Of a stretch of 64,000 nt of DNA, positions 1-61,424 are shown one piece after another. A model generated the notes under the pieces. That model worked only from the letters and a program-made list of their open reading frames with translations, searched no databases and had not been told where the DNA came from. Numbering within the stretch: the first letter of the stretch is position 1; the number at the start of each line of letters is the position of its first letter. The DNA is from an uncultured Candidatus Saccharibacteria bacterium (GTDB taxonomy: Bacteria > Patescibacteriota > Minisyncoccia > Phycocordibacterales > Zambryskibacteraceae): NCBI GenBank assembly GCA_964608585.1, contig CAZSOL010000002.1:11-64010 (forward strand). The letters run 5' to 3'. The translations under genes and the position numbers were made by a program.

Positions 1-908
<908 letters not shown>

Positions 909-1941: not shown

Positions 1942-3882
1942 TTACGGCATTGTAACCGAAGAGGTTCTCCACTCGGTAAGACCTGAGGAGAATGTAGATG
2001 CAGCAAGTCCGTTAGAACCTACCCAGTTGAACTGCTCAAGACCGACTGCGTAGATGCCGCTTGTGATAAGCGCAGCTGCAGTAGTCCTACCCTCGAAGCG
2101 GAAGGCTACAGGAATCTCAACAGAGCTACCCTCGTTAAGAGTGATAGTGTTTGAGCTTATAGTGTAACCGCTTGGAGCTGTGATGTCTGTTGTAGAAGCA
2201 CCACCAGTTGAAGCTGCTGAACCGTTAGCGTAAACGATGAACGAAGGTGCATCTGATGAATCAGTACCACCGTTGGTTACGAACGGAGTTGTAGAACCGT
2301 TCATACCAAGCAAGATGTTGCTACCCTTTGCCTCTACACGAACCCTGAAGGTTGCAGTAGCGGAAGAAGTAGAAATGTTGTTTTGCTCAGTACCAGCAGC
2401 GTAGGTAATGGTTGGAGTACCAACTAGTGAGAACGTAGCACCAACGTTCCTTACAAGAAGGTTGTTGGCTGCTGCGGAACCAGTGATGGTATCTACCGCA
2501 TCACCCTCGCTATTCTCACCAACCAAGTTTGTTGTGTTTGCAGTCCACGAAGCATCGATGGTTGTCTGAGTAGCGTTAGCTGCACGAATGTCGGCAGCAA
2601 GGGTGAAGGTTCTTGTAGCACCGGCTGGGATGACATAGCTGATGTTCTCAAAGTCAGCATCGCTGTCTGAGAGAGCGTCAGTGCCAAGGATCTGACCGCT
2701 AGTACCGTTACCTGCGTAGAGGTAAGTAGTAGAAGCAGTAGCAGCACCAGCAGAACGGCTAACTACGAAGTTGATCATGTCTGTGATCTCGATATCATCC
2801 TTCTCGGCCTTGATGTCGAAGACCATAAGCACAACCTTGTCTGCCTCATCCTCGTTAGAACCAGAAGCAGCGACTAACTCACGGTTTTGTGGGTTAGAGT
2901 TGTTGCTTGTAGAAACAATGAGCGATGCGCTCTCTGACAATGAAGCAGAGAAGCTCAAAGTCTTTGTAACTGTGGTGTCGTCAGCAGGTGAGTAAAGGTC
3001 GATACCAACACCGTCAATACCGCGAACGCCGTTGTCGGCGAGAGCGATAGTACCACCCTCGGTGATATCAGCAGACTCTATTGAGCTCTCGATATCAGCC
3101 TTGATGTAGTAAACGCGTGTGGTGTCCTTAGCTACAACTGAGCTAAAGCCAGTCATAGTAAGCTCGTACTCGTTTGAGCCGTTTCTAACAACAGTAGTGT
3201 TGTTAAGCTCAGCTGAAGCAAGAGTTCTACCAGCATCATCTACAAGGTAAACCTTTGTAAGAAGGTCTCTGTAGAGAGTGGAGTCTGTACCAAGATCAAG
3301 CTTGACGCGCTGTAGAGCGATGTCAGAAAGATCTGCCTCTGCCTTGAAGGAAAGAACTTCCTTCATCTCTTGACCCTCGTAAAGGGTTGAGACTGAAACA
3401 GGAGCGTTGGTAACAGTAAGGGTACCCTCAGCACCAGGAGTAGTTATAACTCCAGGAACTGCTGGGGTGGTAACGCCACCAGGGGTGGTAGTAACTGTAC
3501 CAGCAAACTTAGACCTAGAAATAGGTCCGAAGTAACCAGTAGCAGGAACACCGTTAGCAGCTTGCCACTTAGCAACTGCGGCCTTTGTTAGAGAGCCGAA
3601 GTAACCAGGAGCAACACCTGCAGGAATGGTCAAGTAGCCTTGAGCTACAAGAGAGTTCTGAAGTGCGACAACTTGAGCACCAGTAGAACCGACTGTTAGG
3701 TCAGAAGTGATGGTTGCAGAAGCTGAAGTGCCTGCAGTAAGAGCTTGAAGCTGTGCCATAAGCGCAGCAATTTGTGCCTGAAGCTCAGCAATAGTCTGTG
3801 CGCCGACAGGAGCGAAAACGCCCAAAGTCATTGCAGCTGCTGCTGAGAAGCCAGCAAATCGTGCGATTGTGATTCTTTTCAT
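1942..3882 (-). CDS. secreted Ser/Thr-rich surface protein with putative peptidoglycan-binding (PGBD-like) domain
   Basis: N-terminal signal peptide; coiled-coil segment; LVAQGYLT...GYFGSLTKAAVAKWQAANG motif typical of PG_binding_1; long beta-rich S/T/G region. Confidence 0.6.
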   Translation of the reverse strand: MKRITIARFAGFSAAAAMTLGVFAPVGAQTIAELQAQIAALMAQLQALTAGTSASATITSDLTVGSTGAQVVALQNSLVAQGYLTIPAGVAPGYFGSLTKAAVAKWQAANGVPATGYFGPISRSKFAGTVTTTPGGVTTPAVPGVITTPGAEGTLTVTNAPVSVSTLYEGQEMKEVLSFKAEADLSDIALQRVKLDLGTDSTLYRDLLTKVYLVDDAGRTLASAELNNTTVVRNGSNEYELTMTGFSSVVAKDTTRVYYIKADIESSIESADITEGGTIALADNGVRGIDGVGIDLYSPADDTTVTKTLSFSASLSESASLIVSTSNNSNPQNRELVAASGSNEDEADKVVLMVFDIKAEKDDIEITDMINFVVSRSAGAATASTTYLYAGNGTSGQILGTDALSDSDADFENISYVIPAGATRTFTLAADIRAANATQTTIDASWTANTTNLVGENSEGDAVDTITGSAAANNLLVRNVGATFSLVGTPTITYAAGTEQNNISTSSATATFRVRVEAKGSNILLGMNGSTTPFVTNGGTDSSDAPSFIVYANGSAASTGGASTTDITAPSGYTISSNTITLNEGSSVEIPVAFRFEGRTTAAALITSGIYAVGLEQFNWVGSNGLAASTFSSGLTEWRTSSVTMP

Positions 3883-17828: not shown

Positions 17829-18392
17829 TTAGTCGAGACCACTAGCTCGTATACCATCGTTTACAAAGACCAAGAACTTCTTCCTGTCTGACCTAACCTC
17901 AAGTATCCCCTTCGGCACAGCTTCCTTAGATAAATAACCCAAGTGTGACAGCAAGCTCGCTACTGTCATAAGCTCCCAGTCTGCCAAACTAGACTCATCA
18001 AAGTCTGGCTTACTCAAAGCCTCCAAAGACTTCTTAAATTCTAGAAAGAGGTCTGTATTTTTGTCCTCGCCTCTTACTAACCGCAAAATAAGACTGGTAA
18101 TCCTGTAGATAGAGAGTAGACTCTCTCTCCTCTCTCTAAGAGTTGGTACTACTTCAATAAGCAAGGAGACAGTGGTCATGCGCCAACTCCTCTTACCTCT
18201 TACCAAAGAGACCTTAACGATGCTTAAATCTCCTAGAGCGGGAGCAGTTCTTGACCCCATCTTCCTCACTCCGCGAGCTGTGGCATAAACAAGACCCAGA
18301 TCTTCTGTAAGTATGGCCAAGGTTTTATCTGCCTCTTTGGAAGAGTGACTCCTTAGCACTATACCTATTGTGGTATAGATGTGGTGAGACAT
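17829..18392 (-). CDS. recO: DNA repair protein RecO (short form)
   Basis: ATARGVRKMGSR and ASLLSHLGY motifs align with RecO; follows ileS with overlapping stop/start. Confidence 0.65.
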   Translation of the reverse strand: MSHHIYTTIGIVLRSHSSKEADKTLAILTEDLGLVYATARGVRKMGSRTAPALGDLSIVKVSLVRGKRSWRMTTVSLLIEVVPTLRERRESLLSIYRITSLILRLVRGEDKNTDLFLEFKKSLEALSKPDFDESSLADWELMTVASLLSHLGYLSKEAVPKGILEVRSDRKKFLVFVNDGIRASGLD

Positions 18393-21300
18393 TAGTCTAT
18401 AAGTAACTTGGTATTGGTAGCCCGCTCAATAGCCTCTCTGTGCTTCTTGTACAGATCCTTGTCTTCCTCTGGAGCAAACTCCATCTGGTCTGTTGGCTTC
18501 AAGTTCTTCTCCTTCCTTGTTTCTTGGATATTGCGGATTATCTCTCGCACCTTCCCCTCTTCTATAAGCTCTGGGGTGAGAGTCGTGTCTAGATAAATCT
18601 CTTGTTCCAAATTTTCCTTTATCTCTACCTCCTTAACGTTCACCTCATCTTTTATAAGTTCCAGATAGCCAGCTTCAAGCTTCTTGCTTTTGGCTTCTAG
18701 TTTTTGGAGTGGTTGGCGAATCTTGATATTGGCTCTGGAACGAGCTTCCAAAGCAAGCGAGACGATGCCCCTCACGTTGTCCATGTCTTCTATAATATCT
18801 TTAGATTTGTTACCAAATAGAGAGAATCTCTTCTTCATCTCTGGCCAAGCTTCAAGATGCACACTCTCTACATCACTCTCAATCCTCAACTTCTGATACA
18901 ACTCCTCTGCGGCAAAAGGGGCAAATGGTGCTAGAAGTTTGGAGAGAGACTTCAATACATAATAAAGAGTCTGCTTCGCTTCCTTGTCTTCTTGCTTTAG
19001 CCTATCTCTAGAACGACGGACATACCAAGTAGAGAGATCCTCTATAAAGTCACGTACATTTCTTACCGGCTCTAAGAGCTTATAATCTTCTATATATTTA
19101 GTATTCTCCTCAATCAAATTTCTCAACTTTTCTAATATCCAGACATCAAGAATGTTCTTTGATTCTGGTTGCTTATTGTTTTCCAAACTCTTGTCTCTAT
19201 ACAAATCATAGAAGGTGTAGACGTTGTCTATAAGGTTAAAGACTCTCTTGTTTATCTCCTCCACACTCTTCTCATCAAAGTTCTTGGGCTCACCAGGTTG
19301 GTTGACCGAGTACATCCAAAGACGCAATACGTCCACACCATACTTCTCTATCGCAGAGAAGGGCTCAACAATGTTGCCTACCGACTTACTCATCTTCTTG
19401 CCCTCCTTATCCATTATGAGCCCTAGACAAATTACATTTTTGTAGGCTAGACCTTTGCCCAAAATAGCTCCAACTGCATGCATGGTGTAGAACCATCCAC
19501 GGGTTTGGTCTAGACCTTCGGAGATAAAGTCTGCTGGGTAGCTGGTGCCAGAGGCTACCGGCACAGCCCCAGAGTCGAGCCATACATCCATCACCTCCTT
19601 GGTACGCTTGTACTCCTTGCCATCCTTAACTAGCACTATGTCATCTATATATGGCTTGTGTAGATCTAGCTGATAATCCGAGTTGTGAGGCAAGGGTACA
19701 AAAGGTAGGTCTCTTACTTCAGCATTCTGAAACCTTTTAAACTCTTTGATAAATATGTGAGTCTTCGGCACATGGTACTCCTTGTGTCTTGGGTCATAGT
19801 AGCCAGACACGACAAAAGAGAGCCATGCAGGTCCGCCATGAGTTACTATCAAAATGTTTTTGCCCTTATACTTCTCCTCAATTTCGTACAAGCACTCTCC
19901 CACTCTTCTGCCCACCTCTCTTAGAGACTCACCACCACCTATAACCTCCTCATACCAATTGGGTCCAACGTTATATACGTGGTTGTGATACTCCTCCCAA
20001 TTCTTACCGTCATAACTTCCTGGATTTATCTCCCGCAATCTCTCGTCAAAAATAATGTCGGACTCATTGAAACCTATTTCTCTCGCAACTATCTGTGCAG
20101 TCTCTTTTGTACGAGCAAAGGGGGATGAAATTATTAAATCTATTTTTTTATCCTCCAGAGTTTTAGCATTCTTCTTAACTTGGGCTCTACCTTCTTCGGT
20201 TAGGTGATCATTGGCTTCGTTCTTATAACTAACAAGATCTTGCTTGTTACACTCTGAGCCACCATGACGCATCACAAAATACTTGTTGCCACTCTTCTTC
20301 GTATACTCTCTTATGGTATCAACCGAATCAATGACCAGTTTCTCCCCATCTTGAGACAGCCATACAGGCAGAGGCGTGCCCCAGTAGCGCTCACGCGATA
20401 TAGCCCAGTCCTTAACCTCTCTTAGCCACTCACCGAAGCGCCCATTCTTGATGTAACTTGGCTCCCAGTTTATCTTCTCGTTCTCCTTCATTAGCTCGCT
20501 ACGGAGCTCCGACATCCTTATATACCAAGAGTCACGTGCATAGTATATGAGACGAGTCTTACACCTCCAGCAGAAGGGATAGGAGTGAGTATAGTTCTCC
20601 TTCTTATACAAAAGTCCTCTGCTCTGGAGATCCTTCAAAACATCTACAGCCAAGCTCTCGTCTGTCACACTTCTACCTTCTAACCAATCAGTACCTTTTA
20701 TAAAAGTCCCATCTGGAGAAACCATGTGTTGCTTGGGCAAACCAATCTTACTACCCAAGTCAAAGTCCTCCTGACCATACATCACAGCAGTGTGCACAAT
20801 ACCTGTGCCATCTTCTGTCGTAACGAAGGGTGCTGTATAAACTCTGAAGGTTTTGTCTGTCGGCTTTATAAAGTTATAAAGTGGCTCATACTCCATACCC
20901 ACCATCTCACTACCTTTGTGCTCGGCGATTATTTCGTACTCTTCTGTAAGAACCGAGAGTCTCTCCTTAGCCAAGACGAGTATCTCCTCACCAACTTTAG
21001 CCTCTACATAAGTTATATCCTCTCCGACAGCCAGAGCTAGGTTGCCAGGGAGAGTCCATGGAGTTGTCGTCCACGCGACGAAGTATGCTTTGTCAAAACC
21101 AACAATCTTGAACTTCGCATAAAGCGACAAATCCTTTACATCTGTATAGCCTTGCGCCAACTCATGAGAGGAGAGCCCTGTACCACACCTTGGGCACCAA
21201 GGTACGACCTTGTAGTCCTTGTACAAGAGCTTCTTCTTATCGGCTTCGGCAACAACGTTCCAAACCGACTCTATATATGAGTTCTTGTATGTGATATATG

Positions 21301-21733
21301 GATCCTTGAGGTCTACCCAGTAACCAATGCGATCGGTGAACCTCTCCCAGATGTCCACATACTTCCACACGCTCTTCTTACACTCTTCGTTAAACTTGGC
21401 TACACCGTACTCCTCTATCTCCTTCTTGCTCTTTAGGCCCAACTGCTTCTCTACCTCAAGCTCTACAGGCAGACCGTGAGTGTCCCAACCCCCCTTCCTC
21501 GGCACCTTGTACCCACGCATCGTCTTATAACGAGGTATGGTGTCCTTGAAAGCTCTAGCCTCTAGGTGGTGTATGCCAGGCTTGCCGTTAGCTGTAGGTG
21601 GCCCCTCGTAGAAGACAAATTCGCCCTTAGGCGAAGGCTTCTCGAGTGACTTCTCGAATATCTTGTTGTCCTTCCAAAATTGTAAGACTTTCTCTTCCCT
21701 TTCCGATCTAGAAAGGCCTTTATCTTCAGCCAT
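18392..21733 (-). CDS. ileS: isoleucyl-tRNA synthetase carrying an inserted histidine-phosphatase (PGAM-like) domain
   Basis: HIGH (PGIHH), CP1 editing domain, WAISRERYWGTPLPVW, KMSKS; insertion of about 200 aa between ...REYTKKSGNKY and DLHKPYIDD containing RHGGSECN and VTHGG motifs. Confidence 0.92.
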   Translation of the reverse strand: MAEDKGLSRSEREEKVLQFWKDNKIFEKSLEKPSPKGEFVFYEGPPTANGKPGIHHLEARAFKDTIPRYKTMRGYKVPRKGGWDTHGLPVELEVEKQLGLKSKKEIEEYGVAKFNEECKKSVWKYVDIWERFTDRIGYWVDLKDPYITYKNSYIESVWNVVAEADKKKLLYKDYKVVPWCPRCGTGLSSHELAQGYTDVKDLSLYAKFKIVGFDKAYFVAWTTTPWTLPGNLALAVGEDITYVEAKVGEEILVLAKERLSVLTEEYEIIAEHKGSEMVGMEYEPLYNFIKPTDKTFRVYTAPFVTTEDGTGIVHTAVMYGQEDFDLGSKIGLPKQHMVSPDGTFIKGTDWLEGRSVTDESLAVDVLKDLQSRGLLYKKENYTHSYPFCWRCKTRLIYYARDSWYIRMSELRSELMKENEKINWEPSYIKNGRFGEWLREVKDWAISRERYWGTPLPVWLSQDGEKLVIDSVDTIREYTKKSGNKYFVMRHGGSECNKQDLVSYKNEANDHLTEEGRAQVKKNAKTLEDKKIDLIISSPFARTKETAQIVAREIGFNESDIIFDERLREINPGSYDGKNWEEYHNHVYNVGPNWYEEVIGGGESLREVGRRVGECLYEIEEKYKGKNILIVTHGGPAWLSFVVSGYYDPRHKEYHVPKTHIFIKEFKRFQNAEVRDLPFVPLPHNSDYQLDLHKPYIDDIVLVKDGKEYKRTKEVMDVWLDSGAVPVASGTSYPADFISEGLDQTRGWFYTMHAVGAILGKGLAYKNVICLGLIMDKEGKKMSKSVGNIVEPFSAIEKYGVDVLRLWMYSVNQPGEPKNFDEKSVEEINKRVFNLIDNVYTFYDLYRDKSLENNKQPESKNILDVWILEKLRNLIEENTKYIEDYKLLEPVRNVRDFIEDLSTWYVRRSRDRLKQEDKEAKQTLYYVLKSLSKLLAPFAPFAAEELYQKLRIESDVESVHLEAWPEMKKRFSLFGNKSKDIIEDMDNVRGIVSLALEARSRANIKIRQPLQKLEAKSKKLEAGYLELIKDEVNVKEVEIKENLEQEIYLDTTLTPELIEEGKVREIIRNIQETRKEKNLKPTDQMEFAPEEDKDLYKKHREAIERATNTKLLID

Positions 21734-23379: not shown

Positions 23380-23407
23380 AGAAAAAGCCCGCTCTCCAGA
23401 GCGGGCT
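23380..23407 (-). terminator. rho-independent terminator downstream of tmk
   Basis: agcccgctct/agagcgggct 10-bp stem followed by T-run on minus strand. Confidence 0.75.
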
Positions 23408-23413
23408 TTGGAC

Positions 23414-24037
23414 TTAGTGGCTTAGAAGCGCACGTAGAGCCCCATTGTAGAAGTCGTTCCAGACTTCAACTGGGGTACGAGAGGCGTCTAGCTCTCGCAC
23501 GTTGCCGATACTTGCAAACTCACGATAGCCCTGCCGAACCCGATTATGAAAACCGAGGTCCATCTCGTCGAAAAGGTTGCGGTCCTTGGCACCATGCTTT
23601 CTCTTAAGACCGACCATAGGGTCAATGTCGAGATAGATGTAAGTAGGCACCACACGGCCTCCAAACATAGACTCTCTGACCTGACGGAAGGTGGTCTTCA
23701 GTTGATGGTGTTCCTCACCAAAGATCTGGTAGGCAAAGGTAGACATATCAAACCTGTCTGAGACTACATCAACCCCAGCTTCTAGGGCCGGTACAATCTT
23801 CTGGGCAATGTGATCAGCTCTTGCCGCCCAGAAGAGATGGAAGCGGGTCTCTGCATCGAAGCTCTCCCCTTCCTTAGAAAAAAGTAGGGAGCGAATCTTC
23901 TCCGCAAAAGGGGTACCACCCGGCTCTCGGGTCACGATGAGCTTCTTCGGATCAGACATCTCCCCCAATCGCTTAATGATGGTGGACTTGCCCGAACCTT
24001 CGCCCCCCTCAACCACAATCAATCGTCCGCGCTTCAT
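23414..24037 (-). CDS. tmk: thymidylate kinase
   Basis: P-loop VVEGGEGSGKST, TREPGGT and DRF motifs; GC-rich relative to flanks. Confidence 0.9.
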   Translation of the reverse strand: MKRGRLIVVEGGEGSGKSTIIKRLGEMSDPKKLIVTREPGGTPFAEKIRSLLFSKEGESFDAETRFHLFWAARADHIAQKIVPALEAGVDVVSDRFDMSTFAYQIFGEEHHQLKTTFRQVRESMFGGRVVPTYIYLDIDPMVGLKRKHGAKDRNLFDEMDLGFHNRVRQGYREFASIGNVRELDASRTPVEVWNDFYNGALRALLSH

Positions 24038-24144
24038 AAAGAGCTCCTGTGTACAGGTTTTTGATCTTCAGTAAGCGTAAACTCTTCCGAGTTGGAGTCA
24101 ATATTGACTCAAAGAAAAAGGCGGGGTGTTAACCCGCCAGTTGT

Positions 24145-25191
24145 CTACTCATCCGAGAGAGAGAGTACAAAATCAGTCAAAGTCTCATCGCCTCGCATTC
24201 CCTCAAGAACGGCTTCCCGAGATGTAAGCTTCGAGAAGTCATGTTCACCCTTGAGGGTCTTCCGATATTGGATCCACTTGGGTCCGAAGTTCCCTCCTTG
24301 TGGTCCTAGGAATGCCCCCGTGTGATCGTGGGTCGTTGCCGGATGCTCGAAGGGCGAAGTGTGACCACTACTCTGGAGCCGATCAGCAAGCTTTAGGTCT
24401 TCGTCAAGACTCCGCTTGCCATCGTGAGTAAGATAACTTACCCGCGCGCAACGCCCAGAAGAAATTCTGGCAAGAACCCACGGGTCACCAACCTCCGAAC
24501 GGTCTTCGTCGAAGATGTAAGGAAGGTGCCACTCCATATGGTCAAGCTCAACCGGTTTGCTTGTGCTATGAGCCTTAGCCATCGCTATTGCGAGAGCTTG
24601 GATCTCTGGCTGAGCCATTGGAGATGCCCGAAGGGCGTAGAAGTTCCGCCAGTAGGTTCCTGTAACGATCACCGTGTGCCAAGCATATGGCTCCAACACT
24701 CGGTTAGCGTGTTGCTTGTGAACACCAACAGAAAGCATCTTCATCTTCAAAGCAACATCTCGATACTCTTGGCAGAGTTGTTCAATCTGTTCACAGGCAG
24801 CAATAGCCCGTAGATCCTCCTTAGCATCTTTCACGATCTGATATGTTCCACCAGCAAGGAAAAAAGCTTGGATGATTGAGACATCTCTGCCGATGAGCCA
24901 GTTATTCCTAGCAGAATCACTATCCTTACCAGAAACCTCTTCGGCCGACTGCATTCCAGCCTTGTTCCTACCGAAGGCCATCGGTACAAATGGATGTTCC
25001 AGAAGCTCCAATAGACGCTTCCAAACAGGGATTGCTCTCGAACTCGCCGAGTTACGAGAAAGGACTCGGTGTGTGTTGAACTCCGCGAGGATAAACCTCG
25101 GGAAGGTCAGCTCGAAAGTTGTCAGACGACTTCCATCGTGGGAGCTGTCTGCTACGACTTTCGCTTGGATACCTACGCGTTCAGTTTGCAC
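24145..25191 (-). CDS. ThyX-like flavin-dependent thymidylate synthase homolog, non-canonical (THR for RHR motif; extra ThyX N-terminal-like segment at C-terminus); GTG start
   Basis: FNTHRVLSRNSASSRA aligns to ThyX motif RHRx7S; ALRASPMAQPEIQALAIA aligns to conserved ThyX C-terminal helix; C-terminal CARVSY...GHTSPFEH matches ThyX N-terminal ARVS...GHxSPFEH. Confidence 0.65.
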   Translation of the reverse strand: MQTERVGIQAKVVADSSHDGSRLTTFELTFPRFILAEFNTHRVLSRNSASSRAIPVWKRLLELLEHPFVPMAFGRNKAGMQSAEEVSGKDSDSARNNWLIGRDVSIIQAFFLAGGTYQIVKDAKEDLRAIAACEQIEQLCQEYRDVALKMKMLSVGVHKQHANRVLEPYAWHTVIVTGTYWRNFYALRASPMAQPEIQALAIAMAKAHSTSKPVELDHMEWHLPYIFDEDRSEVGDPWVLARISSGRCARVSYLTHDGKRSLDEDLKLADRLQSSGHTSPFEHPATTHDHTGAFLGPQGGNFGPKWIQYRKTLKGEHDFSKLTSREAVLEGMRGDETLTDFVLSLSDE

Positions 25192-25264
25192 AGAAACCTC
25201 TGGTTGATGTTTGAAGGTCCTAAATCCAAACGAACACTACCATAAAGTTTTCTTACAAACAACG

Positions 25265-25310
25265 AAGAAAAAGCCCCGTGATGCATCACTGCATCACGGG
25301 GTGTTTTGTT
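25265..25310. terminator. bidirectional rho-independent terminator (12-bp perfect stem)
   Basis: ccccgtgatgca-tcac-tgcatcacgggg hairpin with A-run upstream and T-run downstream. Confidence 0.8.
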
Positions 25311-25788
25311 ATCGAGGCGGAAGCTTGAAGCCATGTGACTCTGCAGTACCATGAAGACGAAAAGAAGGCTTCTTCTCAACGAAGATCTCTCGCTCAAAGG
25401 CAAGAACCAAATCCACCACCTCATCGAAGTTGGAATACTTCACCAACTTGAAGTCTGGGTGAGTGATACCTGCGATCAAGCGACTTGGGTTGTTGTCCTT
25501 GGAGGCCAAACCAAGAACTGGCTTGCCTCGAAGTTCAATCGCAGTAGACATCTCATAACCAAGACCAAGCGACGGAAAGTCGAGAAATGCAACCATGAGG
25601 TCACACCCAGCAACGTGGTTATGGATATCCAGCTTGTACACATCTTGATCGGTCCCTGGGTGAGGATACAGAAACTTGAGAACTTCAAAGTGCTTATCTA
25701 GCAGTTCTCTCGTCTCCTTCACTCTCTCTACATACCATTCAGAAGCACCTTGCAGGGCACAACCAACGTAGAGCTTACGCTTGGGCAC
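25309..25788 (-). CDS. nucleoside 2-deoxyribosyltransferase-like / DNPH1(Rcl)-like protein (GTG start, AAGGAGA SD)
   Basis: KLYVGCAL start of Rossmann-like fold and D..GLGYEMSTAIELRGKPVLGL matching the D.GT.fE.GyA...GKPV signature of the deoxyribosyltransferase-like superfamily. Confidence 0.5.
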   Translation of the reverse strand: MPKRKLYVGCALQGASEWYVERVKETRELLDKHFEVLKFLYPHPGTDQDVYKLDIHNHVAGCDLMVAFLDFPSLGLGYEMSTAIELRGKPVLGLASKDNNPSRLIAGITHPDFKLVKYSNFDEVVDLVLAFEREIFVEKKPSFRLHGTAESHGFKLPPR

Positions 25789-25860
25789 TTGAGTCTCCTT
25801 GTGTTGAGATCTTTTCTGAGAGACAGATTACTTTATATACAAAACAAAAGCAAAAGAGTC

Positions 25861-26283
25861 TTACTTCACCTCCACACCCATTGAGCGAGCAGAGCCTTCA
25901 ATAATCCTCATTGCGGCGTCTATGTCGGTAGCGTTGAGGTCGGCCATCTTCTTCTCGGCTATAGCCCTCACTTGTGCCTTAGAAATGGAACCAATTTTAG
26001 AAGTATTTGGCTTGCCACTACCCTTCTCCTTACCCAAGGTCTTGAGTATTAGGTTAGCTGCAGGCTCGGTCTTGTAGATCATCCCATAAGTACGGTCATC
26101 GTAGACCTCAACCACTGTAGGCACTATCTCACCTACTCTGTCCTTGGTCTCATCGTTAAAGCGCTTAACGAACTCACCAATGTTAAGCCCTGCACCTCCA
26201 AGTACTGGACCAAGAGCTTGTCCTGGGACAGCCTTACCGCCGGGGATCTGGAGCTTTAATACCTTTGTAACTTTCTTTGCCAT
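25861..26283 (-). CDS. rplK: 50S ribosomal protein L11
   Basis: Canonical L11 sequence (PGGKAVPGQALGP...). Confidence 0.95.
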   Translation of the reverse strand: MAKKVTKVLKLQIPGGKAVPGQALGPVLGGAGLNIGEFVKRFNDETKDRVGEIVPTVVEVYDDRTYGMIYKTEPAANLILKTLGKEKGSGKPNTSKIGSISKAQVRAIAEKKMADLNATDIDAAMRIIEGSARSMGVEVK

Positions 26284-29440: not shown

Positions 29441-29513
29441 GGGTGACTACAGGGAGTCGAACCCTGACAGAGAGCTCCACAAGCTCGCGTGCTACCGCTA
29501 CACCATAGCCACC
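29441..29513 (-). tRNA. tRNA-His (GTG) with encoded G-1
   Basis: Manual cloverleaf: 8-bp acceptor with G-1:C73, anticodon loop TTGTGGA, T-loop TTCGACT. Confidence 0.85.
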
Positions 29514-29573
29514 ATCAAACCCCATCTTTATACCATAAATTAAGAAAAAGACCGCCTTTTGGGCGGTCTGTAC

Positions 29574-30266
29574 TTATGCGCTAAGAGACAGGCTGGCTTG
29601 CTCGCGTCCTGTGGCACAAGCGTACCCAGAACACCCCAAAGCCCCAGAGCGACGTCGCTGGTCTCTACGAATATAGTTGGCGGCGTTCTCAGAGAGACCA
29701 TCAACACGAGCAAGGGTTATCCAAAGAGGATACTCCGTCCAAGCTACCAAGAACGGGCACGAGCACAGTCTTGAGTGAGGCAAGACATAGCCATACTCGT
29801 GTAGAACCCACTCCACCTCACGCTTAAACCGCTCTAAGGTTCTACCCTCGCTCACTCCAACAAAGCCCCGCAAGGCTAGAGCCCCTGCAAACTCTAGGGT
29901 CAGTCCAATGATGTCAGAGAGGTTAACCTCTGCCTGTCTTGGACGAGGAGGGAGCTTCTTGCTCAAGATCTTCTGGAGCAAGGACTTAGGAGTAACTCTG
30001 CTCTTGGATACTCTCAGATCAAGAGAGGTCTGCCCCCTGTGCTTCAGCGAAGAACTGGAGACGAGTTCTAGGGCTTGGATAGACTCAAAGAGTCTCTCTG
30101 CAAGCTCAACCTCTATCTCCCCCTTTGTCCTCTGCCTCCGCTTACCAATATTGATCCCCTTCTTAGAAAGAACTCCAAGAAGTAATTGGGTCGCGACCTG
30201 CACACGAGAAACACTTTCCCGTTCCATTATGTCCTCTCTGTATTGAGTGAAGGAGCTTCTTCGCAC
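29574..30266 (-). CDS. hypothetical protein between tRNA-His and tRNA-Leu (moderately GC-rich)
   Basis: 230-aa ORF; no recognisable catalytic motifs. Confidence 0.4.
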   Translation of the reverse strand: MRRSSFTQYREDIMERESVSRVQVATQLLLGVLSKKGINIGKRRQRTKGEIEVELAERLFESIQALELVSSSSLKHRGQTSLDLRVSKSRVTPKSLLQKILSKKLPPRPRQAEVNLSDIIGLTLEFAGALALRGFVGVSEGRTLERFKREVEWVLHEYGYVLPHSRLCSCPFLVAWTEYPLWITLARVDGLSENAANYIRRDQRRRSGALGCSGYACATGREQASLSLSA

Positions 30267-30462
30267 ATCATAGCTCTAAAGAAAACAAAAAACTCTGTGT
30301 ATATTGCACAGAGAAATACTTAAAACAAAATGTCTATACTACTTTAGTGCGCGGGTGAGCTTGGGTTGGGACCCAAGCGCAAGACCTTGAGCATCAAAGA
30401 TGCGAAAGGTGTACAGCCTCTGTAAGAGGAGGATGCAATCCTCTCCCGGCTCAAACTTGTTT

Positions 30463-30545
30463 GTGCGCGGGAGAGGATTTGAACCTCCATGCCTCTCGGC
30501 GCTACCACCTCAAGGTAGTGCGTCTACCAATTTCGCCACCCGCGC
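30463..30545 (-). tRNA. tRNA-Leu (GAG), long variable arm
   Basis: Acceptor GCGCGGG/CCCGCGC, anticodon loop TTGAGGT, long variable arm, T-loop TTCAAAT. Confidence 0.88.
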
Positions 30546-30577
30546 AACTTGTCCCGCTTAGGCGGGATACGCCAATC

Positions 30578-30973
30578 TTACTCGGCTTCTACTGTTTCTT
30601 CAACAACTGGAGCAGGAGTGGAGAAGCGCTCGTTCCTCATTTGTCGTCTGACCTCCTTAGCCGCCTTCTCACGAATGTGGTACAGCTTGGCACGGCGGAC
30701 CTTAGCTCGCTTCAAGATATCAATCTTGTCTATCATTGGAGAATAGAGTGGGAAGATCTTCTCAACTCCCACCCCTGATGCAACACGACGAACGGTGAAG
30801 GTGGCCCCAGCCTCACTTCCGTGCTTGCGAGCAAGCACAAGACCCTCAAAGGCCTGCAAGCGAGTCTTGCCTTTCTCTTGGATCTTCTGCCAGACACGCA
30901 CGGTGTCACCAGCTCTTAGGTCAAGCTTGGCTCTGTCTTCTATCTTTACTGGGCTCATTACTCTTGTTGGCAT
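30578..30973 (-). CDS. rplS: 50S ribosomal protein L19
   Basis: RAGDTVRV...[10 protein letters not shown]19 core. Confidence 0.9.
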
Positions 30974-30998
30974 CCCTTTTGTTTCCTTTATTGAGTCA

Positions 30999-31694
30999 TC
31001 AATCTAACACAGCTTTGCCTACCCTGTCGAGAGCCTGCCTAAAGTCGTCAGGATACGGTGCTAACACAACCTTTCTCTCCCCTTTTGTATCTTTAAAGGA
31101 GATTTGCTTAGCGTGCAGAGCCAATCTTTCGAATCCAAGTAAAGCCGGCTTGCCAGAAGCGTAGAGTTTGTCGGCAATAACTGGGTGGTGCAGAGCCTTG
31201 AAGTGAACGCGGATCTGATGCGTCCTGCCGGTCTTCGGCTTTGCCTCTACCAAGGTCACTCCCTCGCCTCTGCCAAGTACTCTAAAGTACGTTATCGCCT
31301 CTCTACCCTCGTGCCCAGCTATGCGCTTGCGAAAGTCAGACTTACTTCTAGATATTTTTGTGTTTATAGTGCCGTGGTCCTCCTTGAGGTTGCCGTACAG
31401 GAAGGCTTCGTACACCTTGTCTACCTCGTGATTTTGAAACTGACGCTTCAAACACTCAAAGCCTTCCTTGGTCTTGGCCAATAGCAGGACCCCAGAGGTC
31501 TCTCGGTCTATCCTATGCACAATGCCCGGCCTCTCTATCTCACCCATCTTCTCCCCCACATCCTTGGCCTCTGGGTACTTGCTCACAAACCAGTTGGATA
31601 CACTCGGCTCCTCTGTCCGACCATCAGAGTGTACGACAAGACCAGCGGGTTTGTTTATCGCAATGATATCTTCGTCTTCAAAGAGGACTTCCAT
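30999..31694 (-). CDS. RluA-family pseudouridine synthase
   Basis: Catalytic HRIDRETSG motif. Confidence 0.85.
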
Positions 31695-31697
31695 TTG

Positions 31698-31770
31698 TGG
31701 GCGATACAGGACTCGAACCTGTGACCTTCTCTGTGTAAAAGAGTTGCTCTACCAACTGAGCTAATCGCCC
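31698..31770 (-). tRNA. tRNA-Val (TAC)
   Basis: Acceptor GGGCGAT/ATCGCCC, anticodon loop TTTACAC, T-loop TTCGAGT. Confidence 0.88.
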
Positions 31771-31853
31771 TACTTATCCGTCAAAGCACGGATGAAACGA
31801 TACTAACATACAATATATACCTTACGCACGACTTTATGATAATGTGGGTGGAC

Positions 31854-31925
31854 GCCTCCATAGCTCAATGGATAGAGCAGCTCTCTTCTAAGGAGTTGAT
31901 GTGGGTTCGATTCCTGCTGGAGGCA
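31854..31925 (+). tRNA. tRNA-Arg (TCT)
   Basis: Acceptor GCCTCCA/TGGAGGC, D-stem GCTC/GAGC, anticodon loop CTTCTAA. Confidence 0.8.
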
Positions 31926-38100: not shown

Positions 38101-38565
38101 TCACATCCAGTTGTGAGTGTTGCCGAAAGGATCAGGTGGGTTCTTCTGGACCTCCACACCGAGCTCATCGAGGAACTCCATGAAGTTGTTCCACAGAGTC
38201 TTGAGGGCTCTACCGAGAGTCCATTTCATCTTCGGGGGCTCCTCCTTGGTGAAGAGGCTCTCCTTGAAGATGTGGATCATCTGCCCAACCATGGCCGACT
38301 CGATTGAGATGGGGCCCGTCTCCGAGCTGTCGTACGTATCAACGGAGTCCATCCTGACATCAATCCTCTCATCCGGATGAGCTGTGCCAAGACCGAGATT
38401 GATGTTCTCGGTATGGGCGAGAGCTTGGTAGATTTGGTCATAGATCTCCTTCGCTCTCACAGCGTGACCCAAGTGACCCTTGTCCAAGGGACCGACGATG
38501 AAGTACTTCTTGAGCTCTCCTTGAAAGTAGAGCTCAATCCGCTTGTAGGGCTTGAAGTTGCCCAT
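38101..38565 (-). CDS. hypothetical protein, GC-rich (about 54%), strong SD (GGGAGGT)
   Basis: 154-aa ORF with SD 5 nt upstream of ATG, unlike native genes; no recognisable domain. Confidence 0.5.
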   Translation of the reverse strand: MGNFKPYKRIELYFQGELKKYFIVGPLDKGHLGHAVRAKEIYDQIYQALAHTENINLGLGTAHPDERIDVRMDSVDTYDSSETGPISIESAMVGQMIHIFKESLFTKEEPPKMKWTLGRALKTLWNNFMEFLDELGVEVQKNPPDPFGNTHNWM

Positions 38566-52058: not shown

Positions 52059-54155
52059 ATGAATCCCGCTAAAAGGGCTTGGATTAAGACTCACAGGAAG
52101 AATATCCTGTCTTTGATCGTATCGGCCGTCTTGTTGATTATTGGTATTGGACTCTTGTGGGTAGCCAGCCTCAAAATACCAGATCTGTCAGATCTTGAAA
52201 CCAGAAGAGTGGTGGAATCAACCAAAATATATGACCGCACCGGAGAAGTGCTCCTCTACGATATGGGTCAGAACTTGAGACGAACCATTATCCCCTTCAA
52301 GGAAATCTCTGATTATGTGAAGAAGGCTGTGGTTGCTGTGGAAGACAAAGGGTTCTACTCTCATGGAGGCTTTGATATGGAGGCCATAATGAGGGCTATC
52401 TGGGTAGACATAAAGACTCTGTCTCTCTCTCAAGGAGGCTCTACAATAACCCAACAAGTGGTCAAAAACTCTATCCTAACGACAGACAAGACCCCGACCA
52501 GAAAGTTGAAGGAGATCATCCTTGCAATAAAGCTTGATGGAGCTCTAACCAAAGAGCAGATACTGAACATTTATCTAAACGAGATACCCTTCGGGGGTAA
52601 TCTATATGGGGTTGAGGAAGCTTCTCAAAACTTCTTTAGGAAAAAAGCTAAAGACCTAACCTTGGCAGAGTCAGCTTATCTGGCCGCGATTATAAACCGA
52701 CCAACACGATACTCCCCTTATGGCACACATAGAGATGAGTTAGAGAATAGGAAAAACTTTGTCCTAAGTGAGATGCTAAAACAATCTCTTATAAACACCG
52801 AGGAGTACGAAACGGCTTTGAAGGAGGTTGTCGCCTTCAGCCCCAGAGAGAACATCGGTGGGATAAGAGCTCCTCACTTTGTTTTCTATGTCATAGACAT
52901 ACTTAGAGACACTTATGGTGAAGATACCATTCAAAGTGGTGGTCTTAGGGTTATAACCACTCTTGACTATGATATACAAAAAGAAGCAGAAGTTGTTGCA
53001 AAAAAGTACGGTGAGATAAACCAGGAGCAATTCAACGCTGACAACAACGCCACTGTTGTTATAAACCCAAAAACTGGAGACATCTTAGCTATGACTGGAT
53101 CCAGAGACTACTTTGACGAAGATATAGGTGGTAACTTTAACGCAGCGATAGCTCGTAGACAGCCGGGCTCAACCTTTAAACCTCTTGTCTACTCTGTCTT
53201 GTTCAACAAGGGTTATACGCCAGATACAATCCTTTGGGATGTACCAACCCAATTTTCTCCAAACTGTGACTGGGATAAGCTTGAGAGTGACGACATTTGC
53301 TACTCTCCAGTCAACTACGACGACCTCTTCCGAGGCCCTATGAAGATAAGAGACGCTTTGGCCCAATCAATAAACGTCCCCGCAGTTAAGGCTCTATATC
53401 TTGCTGGAATAAGAAACTCTCTTGATCTGGCCGAATCATTTGGCATCACAAGTCTTAAGGATGAAAGTCGCTTTGGTCTATCTCTTGTCCTTGGAGGTGG
53501 TGAAGTATCTCTTCTGGAACTTGTATCTGCATACAGCGTGTTTGCCAATGATGGAACACGAAACCCTCACAACGCATTGATTAGGGTTTACGACTCTAGA
53601 GACAAAATTTTGGAAGAGCACACCCCATCACCAAGAAGAGTTTTGCCAGAAGATACATCAAGGAAAATATCCAGCATCCTTTCTGATAACGTAGCAAGAA
53701 CCCCAGCTTATGGACCAAACTCTATCTTGTATTTTGCAGATAGGCCTGTAGCAGTAAAGACAGGTACAACCAACGACTTCAAAGATGCTTGGATTGTTGG
53801 CTTTACCCCCAACGTCGTTGTAGGGGCTTGGGTTGGCAACAACGAAAACATTCCAATGGAAAAGAGAGTGGCTGGCTTCATCGTTGCTCCAATGTGGAGA
53901 GAGCTTATGAATGCGGTTCTCCCAGACCTACCTGTTGAAAACTTCGGAGAGCCATCAATCACAGATCCAGACTTAAAACCTGTTCTACGAGGAGAGTGGC
54001 AAAGCGGAGAAGCCCATTCCATCCTTCATTTTGTGGACAAAGACAATCCCTTAGGCCCATCACCAATTAACCCAAACCTTGACCCACAATACCAAAACTG
54101 GGAGAAAGCTATTGAAGCCTTCTTATCTTCTAGTAGACCAGTTTCGTCAAATTAA
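52059..54155 (+). CDS. class A penicillin-binding protein (glycosyltransferase + transpeptidase), PBP1A-like
   Basis: N-terminal TM, GT51 motifs (EDKGFYSHGG), transpeptidase STFKP, SxN, KTGT. Confidence 0.9.
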   Translation: MNPAKRAWIKTHRKNILSLIVSAVLLIIGIGLLWVASLKIPDLSDLETRRVVESTKIYDRTGEVLLYDMGQNLRRTIIPFKEISDYVKKAVVAVEDKGFYSHGGFDMEAIMRAIWVDIKTLSLSQGGSTITQQVVKNSILTTDKTPTRKLKEIILAIKLDGALTKEQILNIYLNEIPFGGNLYGVEEASQNFFRKKAKDLTLAESAYLAAIINRPTRYSPYGTHRDELENRKNFVLSEMLKQSLINTEEYETALKEVVAFSPRENIGGIRAPHFVFYVIDILRDTYGEDTIQSGGLRVITTLDYDIQKEAEVVAKKYGEINQEQFNADNNATVVINPKTGDILAMTGSRDYFDEDIGGNFNAAIARRQPGSTFKPLVYSVLFNKGYTPDTILWDVPTQFSPNCDWDKLESDDICYSPVNYDDLFRGPMKIRDALAQSINVPAVKALYLAGIRNSLDLAESFGITSLKDESRFGLSLVLGGGEVSLLELVSAYSVFANDGTRNPHNALIRVYDSRDKILEEHTPSPRRVLPEDTSRKISSILSDNVARTPAYGPNSILYFADRPVAVKTGTTNDFKDAWIVGFTPNVVVGAWVGNNENIPMEKRVAGFIVAPMWRELMNAVLPDLPVENFGEPSITDPDLKPVLRGEWQSGEAHSILHFVDKDNPLGPSPINPNLDPQYQNWEKAIEAFLSSSRPVSSN

Positions 54156-54387
54156 GCTTTGTTCTAGATCTAACCAACTCCAAAATCTGATCTTCTTTGA
54201 GTTTTAGCTCGTTTCTTTTTGCTGGAGAGGTCTTTATCTTCAGACTATTGCCTTGTATTGATACATCCTCAGCAAAAACATCAAAACCAGCAACCTCCTT
54301 AACGCTATTACAAACACTTTCTCTGATAGCCCGGTCCCCACCCAAAGACCTCCTTAACCTCTCTAGAAGCCCGTTTAAAGCATCCAT
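54130..54387 (-). CDS. small protein downstream of dnaN (DUF721-like)
   Basis: 85-aa ORF directly following dnaN. Confidence 0.3.
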   Translation of the reverse strand: MDALNGLLERLRRSLGGDRAIRESVCNSVKEVAGFDVFAEDVSIQGNSLKIKTSPAKRNELKLKEDQILELVRSRTKLNLTKLVY

Positions 54388-55487
54388 TACCGGTTCATGG
54401 GCATTAGTAGATATCTAAAACTTTTGTCCCCTACACCCTCTACCATTATCGGCTTGCCCTCCCCAGCAAAATGAAGTTGTAAGCTATCCACCGAAATGGA
54501 AGCAAAACCGTCTGTAAGGTAACGATGATTAACACTTATTGATATATCCTTACCTTCAAGAGAAGCTTCTATATTGTCTTTGTTCTCACCAACATCTTGA
54601 TTTTTAGACTCTATCTCAAATTTTTTATTTTTTGGAGAAAGAGTCAGTCTAAGTTGGTTAAAATTGTCTGAGAATATGAGTGAGGTCTTCAAAGAAGAGA
54701 GGAGATCTTGTTTCAACACAATAGCACTGGAAGCGATGTCTTTAGGAATAATTTGTTTGTAGTCTGGAAACACACCATCTATTGTGCGAGAGGTTAAGTA
54801 TATAGACCCGCCTCTCATAGCCATTTGATTATCTTCAATGGTTATAGACACATCTTCTTCTATACCATCAAAGATTCTTATTATTTCCAGAACATTCTTT
54901 TGTGGTAAGAGTATTTGGGTAAAGTTTGGTATCTTTTTTACCTTTATTTTTTTCTCAGCGAGCCTGAAGGAGTCTGTAGCAACAAAAACAAGACTTTCCC
55001 CTTCATGGATTAAACAAACAGATGAGAGTTCTGGTTTAATACTCCCAACCGCAGCTGCATAAAACACGGATTTGAGACCTAAAACAAGATCCTTAGACGG
55101 TATAGAGAAGTTACTCCCACCACCCATCTCAGGGATAACAGGAAACTCCTCTGGAGGTAGGGTTTTTAGGGTTGAGTGTGTTGTTGGGGTTTCTATAACA
55201 AGAGTTTGGTTGTCTTGGGTTAGGGTTACATTATTTCCTTTTGATAAAGAGTTTATGAGAGAAGAGAAGATGTGTGCCGGAACAACAACATGACCTTCTT
55301 TTAGAACTTTAACGGGTAGATGGATTGATATTCCTAAATCTAAGTTTGTTGCCCTAATAGTTAAGATTCCTCCAAGAGCCTCTAAAGAGATCCCTGCTAA
55401 AACTGGTAGGGTTACATTTTTACCAGAGACCTTCTCGGCTCTACTCACAGCCTCCACAAGTTTTTCTCTAGTTGATTCTATTTTCAT
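54387..55487 (-). CDS. dnaN: DNA polymerase III beta sliding clamp
   Basis: Three-domain clamp pattern; downstream of dnaA. Confidence 0.9.
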   Translation of the reverse strand: MKIESTREKLVEAVSRAEKVSGKNVTLPVLAGISLEALGGILTIRATNLDLGISIHLPVKVLKEGHVVVPAHIFSSLINSLSKGNNVTLTQDNQTLVIETPTTHSTLKTLPPEEFPVIPEMGGGSNFSIPSKDLVLGLKSVFYAAAVGSIKPELSSVCLIHEGESLVFVATDSFRLAEKKIKVKKIPNFTQILLPQKNVLEIIRIFDGIEEDVSITIEDNQMAMRGGSIYLTSRTIDGVFPDYKQIIPKDIASSAIVLKQDLLSSLKTSLIFSDNFNQLRLTLSPKNKKFEIESKNQDVGENKDNIEASLEGKDISISVNHRYLTDGFASISVDSLQLHFAGEGKPIMVEGVGDKSFRYLLMPMNR

Positions 55488-55691
55488 ATTTAAATACTTG
55501 TTAATACTATTAGTCTTGTGGATATGTGGAAAAACTTTTTAAGATAGATAGAGATTAGTGTTTTTATTTTTTTAAAAAAGTGGAGTGGTGGATAACTTCT
55601 AAAAACCGATATTAACTTTTTAACCCCCCTACTTGTTTCTTGGTTTTTTAAAGACATTTTTGTTTGGTTTTGAACATTTTGTACACAACTA
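55488..55691. promoter_or_regulatory. candidate oriC segment (DnaA boxes + AT-rich unwinding element) in dnaN-dnaA spacer
   Basis: TGTGGATAT (55516-55524), TGTGGAAAA (55525-55533), GGTGGATAA (55587-55595) matching TGTGNATAA; tttttatttttttaaaaaag AT tract. Confidence 0.6.
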
Positions 55692-57035: not shown

Positions 57036-57087
57036 AAAGAGTGTCCGAACGATATGTAGTATATATGTTCGGACCAAGACTCCAAAC

Positions 57088-57116
57088 TTGTAATATGGCC
57101 AAAAAATGTTTATAAT
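57088..57116 (+). promoter_or_regulatory. rpmH promoter TTGTAA-17-TATAAT
   Basis: Hexamers at 57088-57093 and 57111-57116, 24 nt upstream of rpmH ATG. Confidence 0.5.
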
Positions 57117-57140
57117 GTGTTTATAAGTTGTTAACTAGAA

Positions 57141-57275
57141 ATGTCTACAACATACCAACCCAAGAAGCGCAAGAGAGCTAGAGCCCACGGCTTTAGGAAG
57201 AGAGCCAAAACCACTGGTGGTCGTCGCACCGTGAAGAGCCGTCGTCGCAAGGGTCGCAAACGACTGACTGTATAA
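57141..57275 (+). CDS. rpmH: 50S ribosomal protein L34 (44 aa; below ORF-track cutoff)
   Basis: Manual translation [44 protein letters not shown]; canonical position upstream of rnpA. Confidence 0.9.
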
Positions 57276-57589
57276 TGCTTTCTAGTCAGAACCGAATACC
57301 TAGGAAAGATTTTGGGGACATACTGTCTTCTCGTCAGACCTCAAGTACTAAAAACTTTTTACTAAGATTTGCTCAAAACAAAGATAAGAGGTTTGCTGTA
57401 TCTGTATCCAAAAAAGTCTCAAAGAGTGCTGTTGCAAGAAACACATTAAGAAGAAGAACCTACGCTGTCCTGAGAGATCTTCTGCCAAAATTAGGAAATG
57501 GTTTATATTTAATAAGTGCTAAGCCGAGTGCTAAGGACCTTCGTGGCGATAGATTAAAAAATGAAATAACTGAGTTATTATTATCCTGA
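57275..57589 (+). CDS. rnpA: ribonuclease P protein component
   Basis: Basic protein overlapping rpmH stop (TAATG); RnpA pattern. Confidence 0.8.
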   Translation: MLSSQNRIPRKDFGDILSSRQTSSTKNFLLRFAQNKDKRFAVSVSKKVSKSAVARNTLRRRTYAVLRDLLPKLGNGLYLISAKPSAKDLRGDRLKNEITELLLS

Positions 57590-59530: not shown

Positions 59531-59533
59531 GTG

Positions 59534-61422: not shown

Positions 61423-61424
61423 TT

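Follow-up and report, generated by a model that had tools for sequence, protein, structure and literature searches.

We describe here a thymidylate gene cluster in a 64-kb stretch of DNA from contig CAZSOL010000002.1 (referred to as the window; all window-level gene counts refer to its 63 open reading frames, ORFs). The segment 23380-25800 contains three separate minus-strand transcription units between rplK and argS, namely p159, which codes for a DNPH1/Rcl-like protein, thyX, which codes for a ThyX-like flavin-dependent thymidylate synthase, and tmk, which codes for a dTMP kinase. The cluster is probably an old site of deoxythymidine triphosphate (dTTP) synthesis in a clade of Paceibacteria (Patescibacteria/Candidate Phyla Radiation, CPR), with cassettes that have been exchanged laterally within the lineage. 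The ThyX-like protein appears to have its segments in a different order from canonical ThyX.

The window was compared with loci from other genomes (labelled L001 to L098, L001 being an independent assembly of the window arrangement). Evidence for exchange comes from L088 and L083, the two closest relatives. L088 matches the window at 83.3% nucleotide identity, unbroken, from 27567 to 25269, a stretch that takes in the upstream region and leader of p159 (25789-25860, minus strand) and p159 itself (84%). The match stops at 25269, just past the hairpin and T run of the p159 terminator. There is no similarity from 25268 to 24111, and the match resumes at 24110, at the palindrome GAGTCAATATTGAC before tmk. 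L088 carries a canonical ThyX of 293 residues, which is inverted. L083 has an ArgRS that is 90.7% identical to that of the window (argS 88% at the nucleotide level), yet its Tmk is only 44% identical; its p159 is 53% identical, and its thyX encodes a 455-residue Thy1 protein on the other strand, with no BLASTP similarity to the window ThyX. The ThyX cassette of the window (25268-24111) has no nucleotide similarity to L088, L083 or L084, with both flanks aligning. The closest tmk alleles (83-84% identical) occur in L093 and L094, where ArgRS is 59-62%, IleRS 67% and ThyX 61-63% identical to the window. The right junction, made up of the ThyX terminator and the tmk palindrome, is common to the window and L005, which is a genome with the same kind of ThyX (type 1). 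All relatives have the thymidylate function at this site, and it is the particular ThyX cassette of the window that is absent or replaced in L083 and L088.

Trees were made by neighbour-joining, which is a distance-based method. In the tree of housekeeping proteins, L002 and L016 are paired (100%), and L010 and L017 are joined to the clade of L001, which represents the window (95%). The ThyX tree splits these genomes into type 1 and type 2 (81%, or 98% each in a larger tree). Assembly chimeras are unlikely, because the arrangements of the window, of L083 and L084, and of L086 and L087 were each found in at least two independent assemblies. The simplest reading of these comparisons is that the window is a mosaic, which would consist of a left part resembling L088 as far as the p159 terminator, a type-1 ThyX cassette, and a tmk with another history. 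An earlier note on this DNA had proposed that the segment was acquired horizontally, possibly from a phage. Horizontal exchange within the lineage is indeed indicated, by the replaced ThyX cassette, the discordant tmk and the conflict between the ThyX and housekeeping trees (at nodes of 81-100%). A foreign or phage source is not, and the donors lie within Paceibacteria.

The site itself is conserved. A thymidylate cluster is found between rplK and argS in over 25 loci of related Paceibacteria, and the gene order PAP2-SIMPL-secE-nusG-rplK-[thyX]-[tmk]-argS-ileS-recO is found in L002-L019, L082-L088 and L093-L098, with thyX sometimes inverted. Other genes found in the interval in one relative or another are dcd, dut, a long DCD, dCMP deaminase, serine hydroxymethyltransferase (SHMT) and a second kind of tmk. 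It is concluded that the rplK-argS interval is a dTTP-synthesis cluster. The earlier note had labelled the three window genes as tmk, ThyX-like and deoxyribosyltransferase-like, which is right at family or superfamily level; the neighbouring gene that it labelled recA is actually recO. Within the 64-kb window there is one tmk and one thyX, and no second copy of either was found there, nor any dcd, dut, dCMP deaminase or glyA gene. Relatives of ThyX were sought in one genome per species and were found in 374 species. The closest (50-68% identical) are from Paceibacteria/Parcubacteria, and at 42-50% there are many from Solirubrobacterales and some from Saccharibacteria. For each of the three cluster proteins, the nearest named homologues come from Parcubacteria, Paceibacterota or Minisyncoccota. 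As a separate observation, rplA, rplJ and rplL do not come after rplK (25861-26283, minus strand); in the window and in every related locus their place is taken by the thymidylate cluster.

Four ThyX architectures, in two orientations, are found in the one slot. In L082, L083 and L085 the slot holds a two-part Thy1 protein of 452-464 residues, and in L086, L087 and L088 a canonical ThyX of 292-321 residues. The two-part proteins lie on the minus strand of their loci (L082 6479-7873, L083 966-2333, L085 1725-3083). Their N-terminal half has SGQEASTRY, with QDW in place of RHR, and their C-terminal half has RDIQRHRA; Pfam Thy1 matches the N-terminal half only. Homologues of p159 are always in the slot rplK-p159-thyX-tmk-argS (six other loci), where the adjacent thyX is of another kind and runs in the opposite direction. 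The position between rplK and thyX, compared across about 30 related loci, is taken by p159, by a divergent dCTP deaminase or by a BtpA-like protein of about 227 residues, or is empty. p159 and dcd never occur together in these loci, which are not phylogenetically independent and include two (L093 and L094) with neither, and this is regarded as a lead only.

Each of the three genes is a unit with its own signals. The p159 gene (25309-25788, minus strand, 159 residues) starts with GTG, preceded by a Shine-Dalgarno (SD) site AAGGAG at 25800-25795 (-8.3 kcal/mol), and is followed by a two-way intrinsic terminator (25274-25301, with a stem of 12-13 bp and eight GC pairs, scored on both strands), which is also the left junction of the ThyX cassette. 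The ThyX cassette (24111-25268, minus strand) comprises a promoter-like extended -10 element, a leader with the SD site GAGGT at 25200-25196 (-6.5 kcal/mol), the ORF (24145-25191, minus strand, 348 residues, GTG start), and a minus-strand intrinsic terminator at 24120-24138, which reads GGCGGGTTAACACCCCGCC and then TTTTTCTTT. The predicted promoter region and leader of tmk (24038-24113, minus strand) contain a palindrome, a -35 box, a -10-like box and the SD site AGGAG at 24048-24044 (-6.6 kcal/mol). The tmk ORF (23414-24037, minus strand, 207 residues) is followed by a terminator on the same strand at 23384-23409, with an 11-bp stem, seven GC pairs and a T run. The duplex energies were computed with a generic anti-SD sequence, since the window contains no 16S rRNA gene.

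SD sites of -6 kcal/mol or stronger precede only nine of the 63 window genes. These nine include all three cluster genes, leaving 6 of the 60 others, which bears out the earlier note's view that the SD sites before 25788 and 25191 set these genes apart from the native genes of the window, and extends it to tmk. A leaderless signature is found in 13 of the 63 genes, where a -10-like TAnn[AT]T box begins exactly at -12 from the start codon; in 23 genes the box begins between -16 and -9. An SD site of -6 kcal/mol or stronger is kept in 88% of the ThyX orthologues and in 69-77% of the tmk orthologues, whereas the eight flanking genes have one in only 0-12% of their orthologues. Because the sites are conserved in this way and rare in the flanking genes, they are best described as maintained features of thyX and tmk, and apparently not decaying relics.

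The terminators and promoters are similarly shared between relatives. Two of the terminators had already been noted at 25274-25301 and 23386-23407, and are confirmed here (placed at 25301-25274 and 23409-23384); the third, after ThyX at 24138-24120, is new. Together they are the three strongest minus-strand hairpins between 15 and 35 kb. The p159 hairpin is kept in L083, L084 and L088, where p159 and thyX converge upon it, while in the window arrangement it is used in one direction only. A two-way terminator thus fits an ancestral arrangement with convergent p159 and thyX. An identical copy of the ThyX terminator hairpin follows the type-1 ThyX of L005, and the -10-like sequence TGgTAGTGT (25242-25234) of the predicted ThyX promoter is also found in type-1 relatives. 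Before tmk there is a near-perfect palindrome of 22 bp (24092-24113) with the core GTCAATATTGAC at 24108-24097, overlapping a predicted promoter with -35 TTGACT at 24101-24096 and -10-like TACGCT at 24079-24074. This region is kept in L088, L083, L005 and L082. In relatives whose thyX is inverted, the palindrome separates the divergent thyX and tmk and resembles two back-to-back -35 boxes. It is likely that the region upstream of tmk has a promoter role.

Some of these results would also fit a purely vertical history, in which the differences arose from ancient paralogues lost differentially, together with fast and uneven evolution, and in which the GC content and SD sites reflect gene-specific expression needs. 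The site is conserved, the GC excess in the window is driven by the first codon position (GC1), the conservation of SD sites across orthologues suggests selection and not a foreign relic, and ThyX identity correlates with that of L11, NusG and IleRS (Spearman 0.5-0.66). We nevertheless think this history unlikely. It does not readily account for sharp breakpoints at regulatory elements amid DNA that is 83-88% identical, or for four architectures and two orientations in one slot with no locus having two types together. It also leaves a tmk that is 83% identical to distant genomes and 44% to the closest, and cassettes whose GC content at the third codon position (GC3) is far over that of the flanks in low-GC relatives.

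The ThyX-like protein has the ThyX fold. It matches Pfam Thy1 (PF02511) with 52.0 bits, which passes the cut-off of 24.8, and TIGR02170 with 60.3 bits, which is below the equivalog cut-off of 87.9; the canonical ThyX of L086 scores 125.6 bits with TIGR02170. Sequence and profile searches against solved structures gave matches that are out of order. Residues 25-52 align to residues 75-102 of the Thermotoga maritima TM0449 chain (the RHR/SxR motif), residues 135-211 to TM0449 129-209, and residues 242-291 to TM0449 32-80 (the GHxSPFEH helices). When residues 212-283 are placed before 21-211, a single continuous Thy1 match is obtained, at profile positions 15-183 of 191, and the scores increase from 52.0 to 64.2 bits for Pfam and from 60.3 to 73.2 bits for TIGR02170. 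Judged from its sequence, therefore, the protein has the N-terminal helical segment of ThyX moved to the C-terminal side. The predicted model has an N-terminal β-hairpin at residues 9-31, which suggests that the first strands stayed and that only the helical segment moved. The re-ordering may have come about by a tandem duplication followed by loss of parts, which it fits. A comparison by hhalign with a profile of two canonical sequences was weak (probability 50% or less) and out of order as expected, and was not relied on. The possibility that the C-terminal tail (residues 296-348) acts as a second RHR strand was also considered, and is speculation only: Pfam, NCBIfam and hhalign detect no similarity to the RHR region. 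We found no description of the re-ordered ThyX in the searchable literature and no solved structure; the matches to 'permuted' concern phage genome ends.

In the ThyX motif, the region T40-H41-R42-V-L-S45-R-N-S-A-S50-S-R52-A53 corresponds to the consensus RHRxxSxxxxSxRY, with the His, both Ser and the last Arg kept, the first Arg replaced by Thr40 and the Tyr by Ala53. The second Arg varies within the family (R/T/C). Positions matching TM0449 H79, S88, R90, N169, R174, H53 and H59 are invariant across 115 family members, with the TM0449 numbering checked against chain alignments and the names of mutants in the PDB. These residues have functional roles that are known from the ThyX literature.

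From homology and gene context, the protein would methylate dUMP to dTMP, using flavin adenine dinucleotide, a reductant and methylene-tetrahydrofolate. The main contextual evidence for the production of dTMP is that genes of a dTTP-synthesis cluster share the locus. Organisms lacking thyA cannot do without ThyX, and the enzyme is a target for antibacterial drugs. It seems quite improbable that the protein is instead a related flavin-dependent enzyme that modifies pyrimidines in another way, for example a UMP methylase of the PolB type or one producing another 5-substituted dUMP, with p159 as its matching nucleotide hydrolase. From one relative to the next, the gene is consistently found with tmk, dcd, dut, dCMP deaminase and SHMT, and most genomes that lack p159 have the same ThyX type. 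Moreover, the same slot in sister genomes holds canonical ThyX (with the 125.6-bit score above), which argues for functional equivalence of the ThyX types, and the phage copies adjoin a dNMP kinase gene or are paired with dCMP deaminase.

The assignment of tmk is based on TIGR00041 (132.9 bits, cut-off 83.25) and PF02223 (E = 2.5e-33), and the translation has the P-loop GGEGSGKST and SDRFD, a DR(Y/F/H) motif. Tmk would phosphorylate dTMP to dTDP.

p159 is a DNPH1/Rcl-like member of the nucleoside 2-deoxyribosyltransferase superfamily, as far as its predicted structure and family profile indicate. The AlphaFold model has a pLDDT of 89.3, and its best Foldseek matches in the PDB are DNPH1/Rcl and MilB (E = 7e-8, TM-scores of 0.6-0.8); each of the first 50 matches is to DNPH1/Rcl or MilB, at probability 1.0. 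A profile of the p159 family (18 homologues) matches DNPH1/Rcl with E = 1e-9, with PSLGLGYE aligned to PSLGVGYE. D54, G75, G77 and E79 are invariant among the 18 homologues, and D54 and E79 align to DNPH1 motifs. Y7 is also invariant, and lies outside the DNPH1 alignment, which starts at profile position 42. The N-terminal catalytic Tyr of human DNPH1 is Y24. The window p159 has no Pfam match, not even to PF05014; among the 18 members of the family, six match PF05014 with E values of 1 or less (best 1.6e-6). An exhaustive profile search with the p159 family gave 1,634 cluster representatives at E of 0.001 or below, so the wider family is not rare. DNPH1/Rcl is a 2'-deoxynucleoside 5'-phosphate N-hydrolase, and the known substrate of DNPH1 is 5-hydroxymethyl-dUMP. 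By homology and context, p159 probably acts on deoxynucleoside 5'-monophosphates (dNMPs), of which it would cleave, or possibly transfer, the base, and it would thereby police or feed the pyrimidine dNMP pool.

The base composition of the cluster is mildly atypical and not clearly alien. The GC content of 23380-25800 is 50.3%, compared with 45.7% for the whole window (+2.1 standard deviations). For windows of the same size the standard deviation is 2.2 points and 0.16% reach this value, with an equal second peak at 29451-31871. The flanking genes have 44.6% (ileS), 46.6% (argS) and 48.7% (rplK). The earlier note had described a GC-rich island, estimated by eye at about 52% against 38-42%; the enrichment is real, but the contrast is about 4-5 points and not 10-14. 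The main seat of the excess is GC1, which is about 0.60 in all three cluster genes against a window mean of 0.51 (standard deviation 0.047). GC3 is ordinary, at 0.577, 0.510 and 0.506 against a mean of 0.484 (standard deviation 0.075), that is +0.3 to +1.2 standard deviations, and argS is comparable (0.574). In a leave-one-out test of synonymous codons, tmk and ThyX score 1.6 standard deviations under the window mean, and the tetranucleotide correlation of the cluster with the window is 0.739, compared with a mean of 0.855 (standard deviation 0.077), which is the 8.6th percentile. A stronger compositional outlier in the window is an ORF of 154 residues at 38101-38565 (minus strand), with a GC3 of 0.742 and no Pfam match, which also has the strongest SD site of the window (GGAGGT, -11.6 kcal/mol).

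The signal is more marked in relatives. ThyX has a higher GC content than its locus in 21 of 21 patescibacterial loci (mean +6.9 points), and its GC3 excess reaches +0.37 in low-GC genomes. For example, the GC3 of ThyX is 0.638 in L002, 0.749 in L016 and 0.763 in L019, with flanks of about 0.37, 0.45 and 0.39 respectively. Other ThyX types, tmk and the gene of the variable rplK-thyX slot are elevated too. The cassettes have a GC content of about 50-55% while their host loci span 36-58%, and the signal is faint in the window because the host GC there happens to be near that of the cassettes. The modest surplus thus has two sources, the amino-acid make-up of the proteins (GC1) and the host-independent GC content of the cassettes.

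The re-ordered ThyX is also common in phages. A tblastn search found it in 1035 phage records, of which 939 cover at least 80% of the query, at 36-40% identity, in N4-like Schitoviridae, Mx1, and Caulobacter, Pseudomonas and Erwinia phages. These homologues are N4 gp30, a 'putative thymidylate synthase' (phrog_85, annotated ThyX). In phages the gene adjoins a dNMP kinase gene or is paired with dCMP deaminase. In Myxococcus phage Mx1 (L090 3001-4697) a dNMP kinase gene directly follows the re-ordered ThyX, mirroring the thyX-tmk pair. We know of no N4 gp30-type ThyX that has been characterised biochemically. In a tree with four phage sequences, the phages (92% bootstrap support), the Solirubrobacterales with Saccharibacteria (92%) and the Parcubacteria (100%) form separate clades. 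The deep phage link of the re-ordered ThyX is therefore real, and a recent phage origin is not supported. For p159, a tblastn search of 50,697 phage records gave no match. Site-specific integration was also considered: no att-like direct repeats were found around the cluster or cassette, and there is no integrase gene in the locus. Exact 12-mer repeats were limited to the tail that the terminators share, GGGCTTTTTCTT. No tRNA gene flanks the cluster, the nearest being at 29.4 kb.

The least probable explanation is that a foreign thymidylate module, possibly from a phage, was recently acquired from outside the lineage and inserted between argS and rplK: a GC content above that of the window, SD sites and strong terminators atypical of it, a ThyX family common in phages and the proposal that phages are vehicles for thy transfer (PMC2826268) all pointed that way, but the idea is largely refuted by the presence of the cluster at this position in more than 25 relatives, by Paceibacteria being the source of the closest homologues for each of the three proteins, and by a monophyletic Parcubacteria group apart from the distant phage clade, the ordinary GC3, and the lack of a phage match for p159 and of mobility genes, att repeats or an adjacent tRNA.

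In the reading that we favour, the cluster would have resided for a long time between rplK and argS in the Paceibacteria clade, as three self-contained cassettes, each with a promoter-like element, an SD leader of about 30-40 nt, an ORF and a strong intrinsic terminator. Exchange would occur by recombination at conserved regulatory elements, presumably the two-way terminator of p159 and the palindromic tmk promoter. In the window genome, a type-1 re-ordered ThyX cassette would have replaced an oppositely oriented ThyX of another architecture, and the tmk allele would have a different history from its flanks. The SD sites would be functional in genomes that otherwise start translation mostly without them, and possession of a complete promoter-SD-terminator unit may be what makes the genes portable among largely leaderless genomes.

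Several points weigh against this reading. The trees are neighbour-joining trees on short alignments, with some poorly supported internal nodes, and ancient paralogues that were lost differentially could give rise to some of the same incongruence. The closest donor candidates (73% for ThyX and 84% for tmk) are too distant to time or orient the transfers. The compositional signal here is weak in GC3 (ordinary), tetranucleotides (8.6th percentile) and codon score (-1.6 standard deviations). The promoters and leaders are predictions from conservation, and TIGR02170 remains under its cut-off even for the re-joined ThyX sequence.

More tentatively, the observations can be combined. The N4 gp30-type ThyX could be a distinct and undescribed topology, probably from tandem duplication and loss of parts, on which many Paceibacteria, Saccharibacteria and Solirubrobacterales, together with more than 1000 phages, would rely for thymidylate synthesis. 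The rplK-argS interval could be a hot-swap site, at which four ThyX architectures are exchanged as portable promoter-SD-terminator cassettes in largely leaderless genomes, and the alternation of p159 with dCTP deaminase could hint at another means of supplying or policing dUMP. We are somewhat less inclined to accept this combination than to doubt it.

The ThyX family and the lateral transfer of thy genes are known; what is worth following up is the re-ordered topology, which is undescribed, and the exchange of cassettes in place at a single site. The locus gives an unusually clean view, at the level of breakpoints, of the in-place replacement of an essential gene in small-genome CPR bacteria, and suggests that self-contained cassettes led by SD sites are the portable units where genomes otherwise rely on leaderless genes. 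The combination of high GC, SD sites and terminators marks a module of within-lineage exchange here, and not phage DNA. A widespread re-ordered ThyX with Thr and Ala changes in its motif would test which parts of the active site are indispensable. There is also a consequence for annotation, in that the equivalog model misses the re-ordered form.

Some other features of the window are recorded here. IleRS (18392-21733, minus strand) has a histidine-phosphatase domain (PF00300, VMRHGGSE) inserted between two parts of its catalytic domain, as it does in L082, L083, L093 and L094. The 5' part of a 23S rRNA gene lies at 1-901 (minus strand), with no adjoining 16S rRNA gene, and beside it lies an ORF (1942-3882) whose product has a peptidoglycan-binding domain. 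A low-GC stretch at 54000-62000, with GC3 of about 0.28-0.32 in several genes, contains dnaN (54387-55487); the cumulative GC skew has its minimum near 61-62 kb, and this may be the replication origin region.

Comparison with known systems shows both similarities and differences. p159 resembles DNPH1/Rcl and MilB, a CMP N-glycosidase, in its fold and in PSLG(V/L)GYE with the catalytic Glu, and it also has the (E/L)D Asp and the SxxIxG Ser of DNPH1/Rcl. It differs from DNPH1 in being bacterial, in its C-terminal extension of 20 residues, and in an identity of only 21-28%. Compared with canonical ThyX (TM0449 and Mycobacterium tuberculosis ThyX), the window protein has its GHxSPxEH helical segment about 235 residues after the RHR-like motif, where canonically it comes before, and an extra conserved C-terminal tail of about 50 residues (W306, R310, D318); sequential structure aligners reach TM-scores of only 0.23-0.53. 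It is like the N4 gp30 type in having the same segment order, an end-to-end alignment, and the motifs HRxFSRNxxSxRAxP, HKQxxNR, WxNFxxLR, ARVSY and HxSPxEH, although the N4 gp30-type proteins are shorter (286-305 residues) and most of the C-terminal tail is missing from them.

It has been reported that thy genes are often transferred laterally, with viruses proposed as vehicles, in a study that did not include displacement by homologous genes in its model (Stern et al. 2010, PMC2826268). The rplK-argS locus is another case of thy transfer of this kind. It differs from those described by Stern et al. (PMC2826268) in that replacement is in place, at one conserved slot within one phylum, among four architectures, with breakpoints at a terminator and a promoter.

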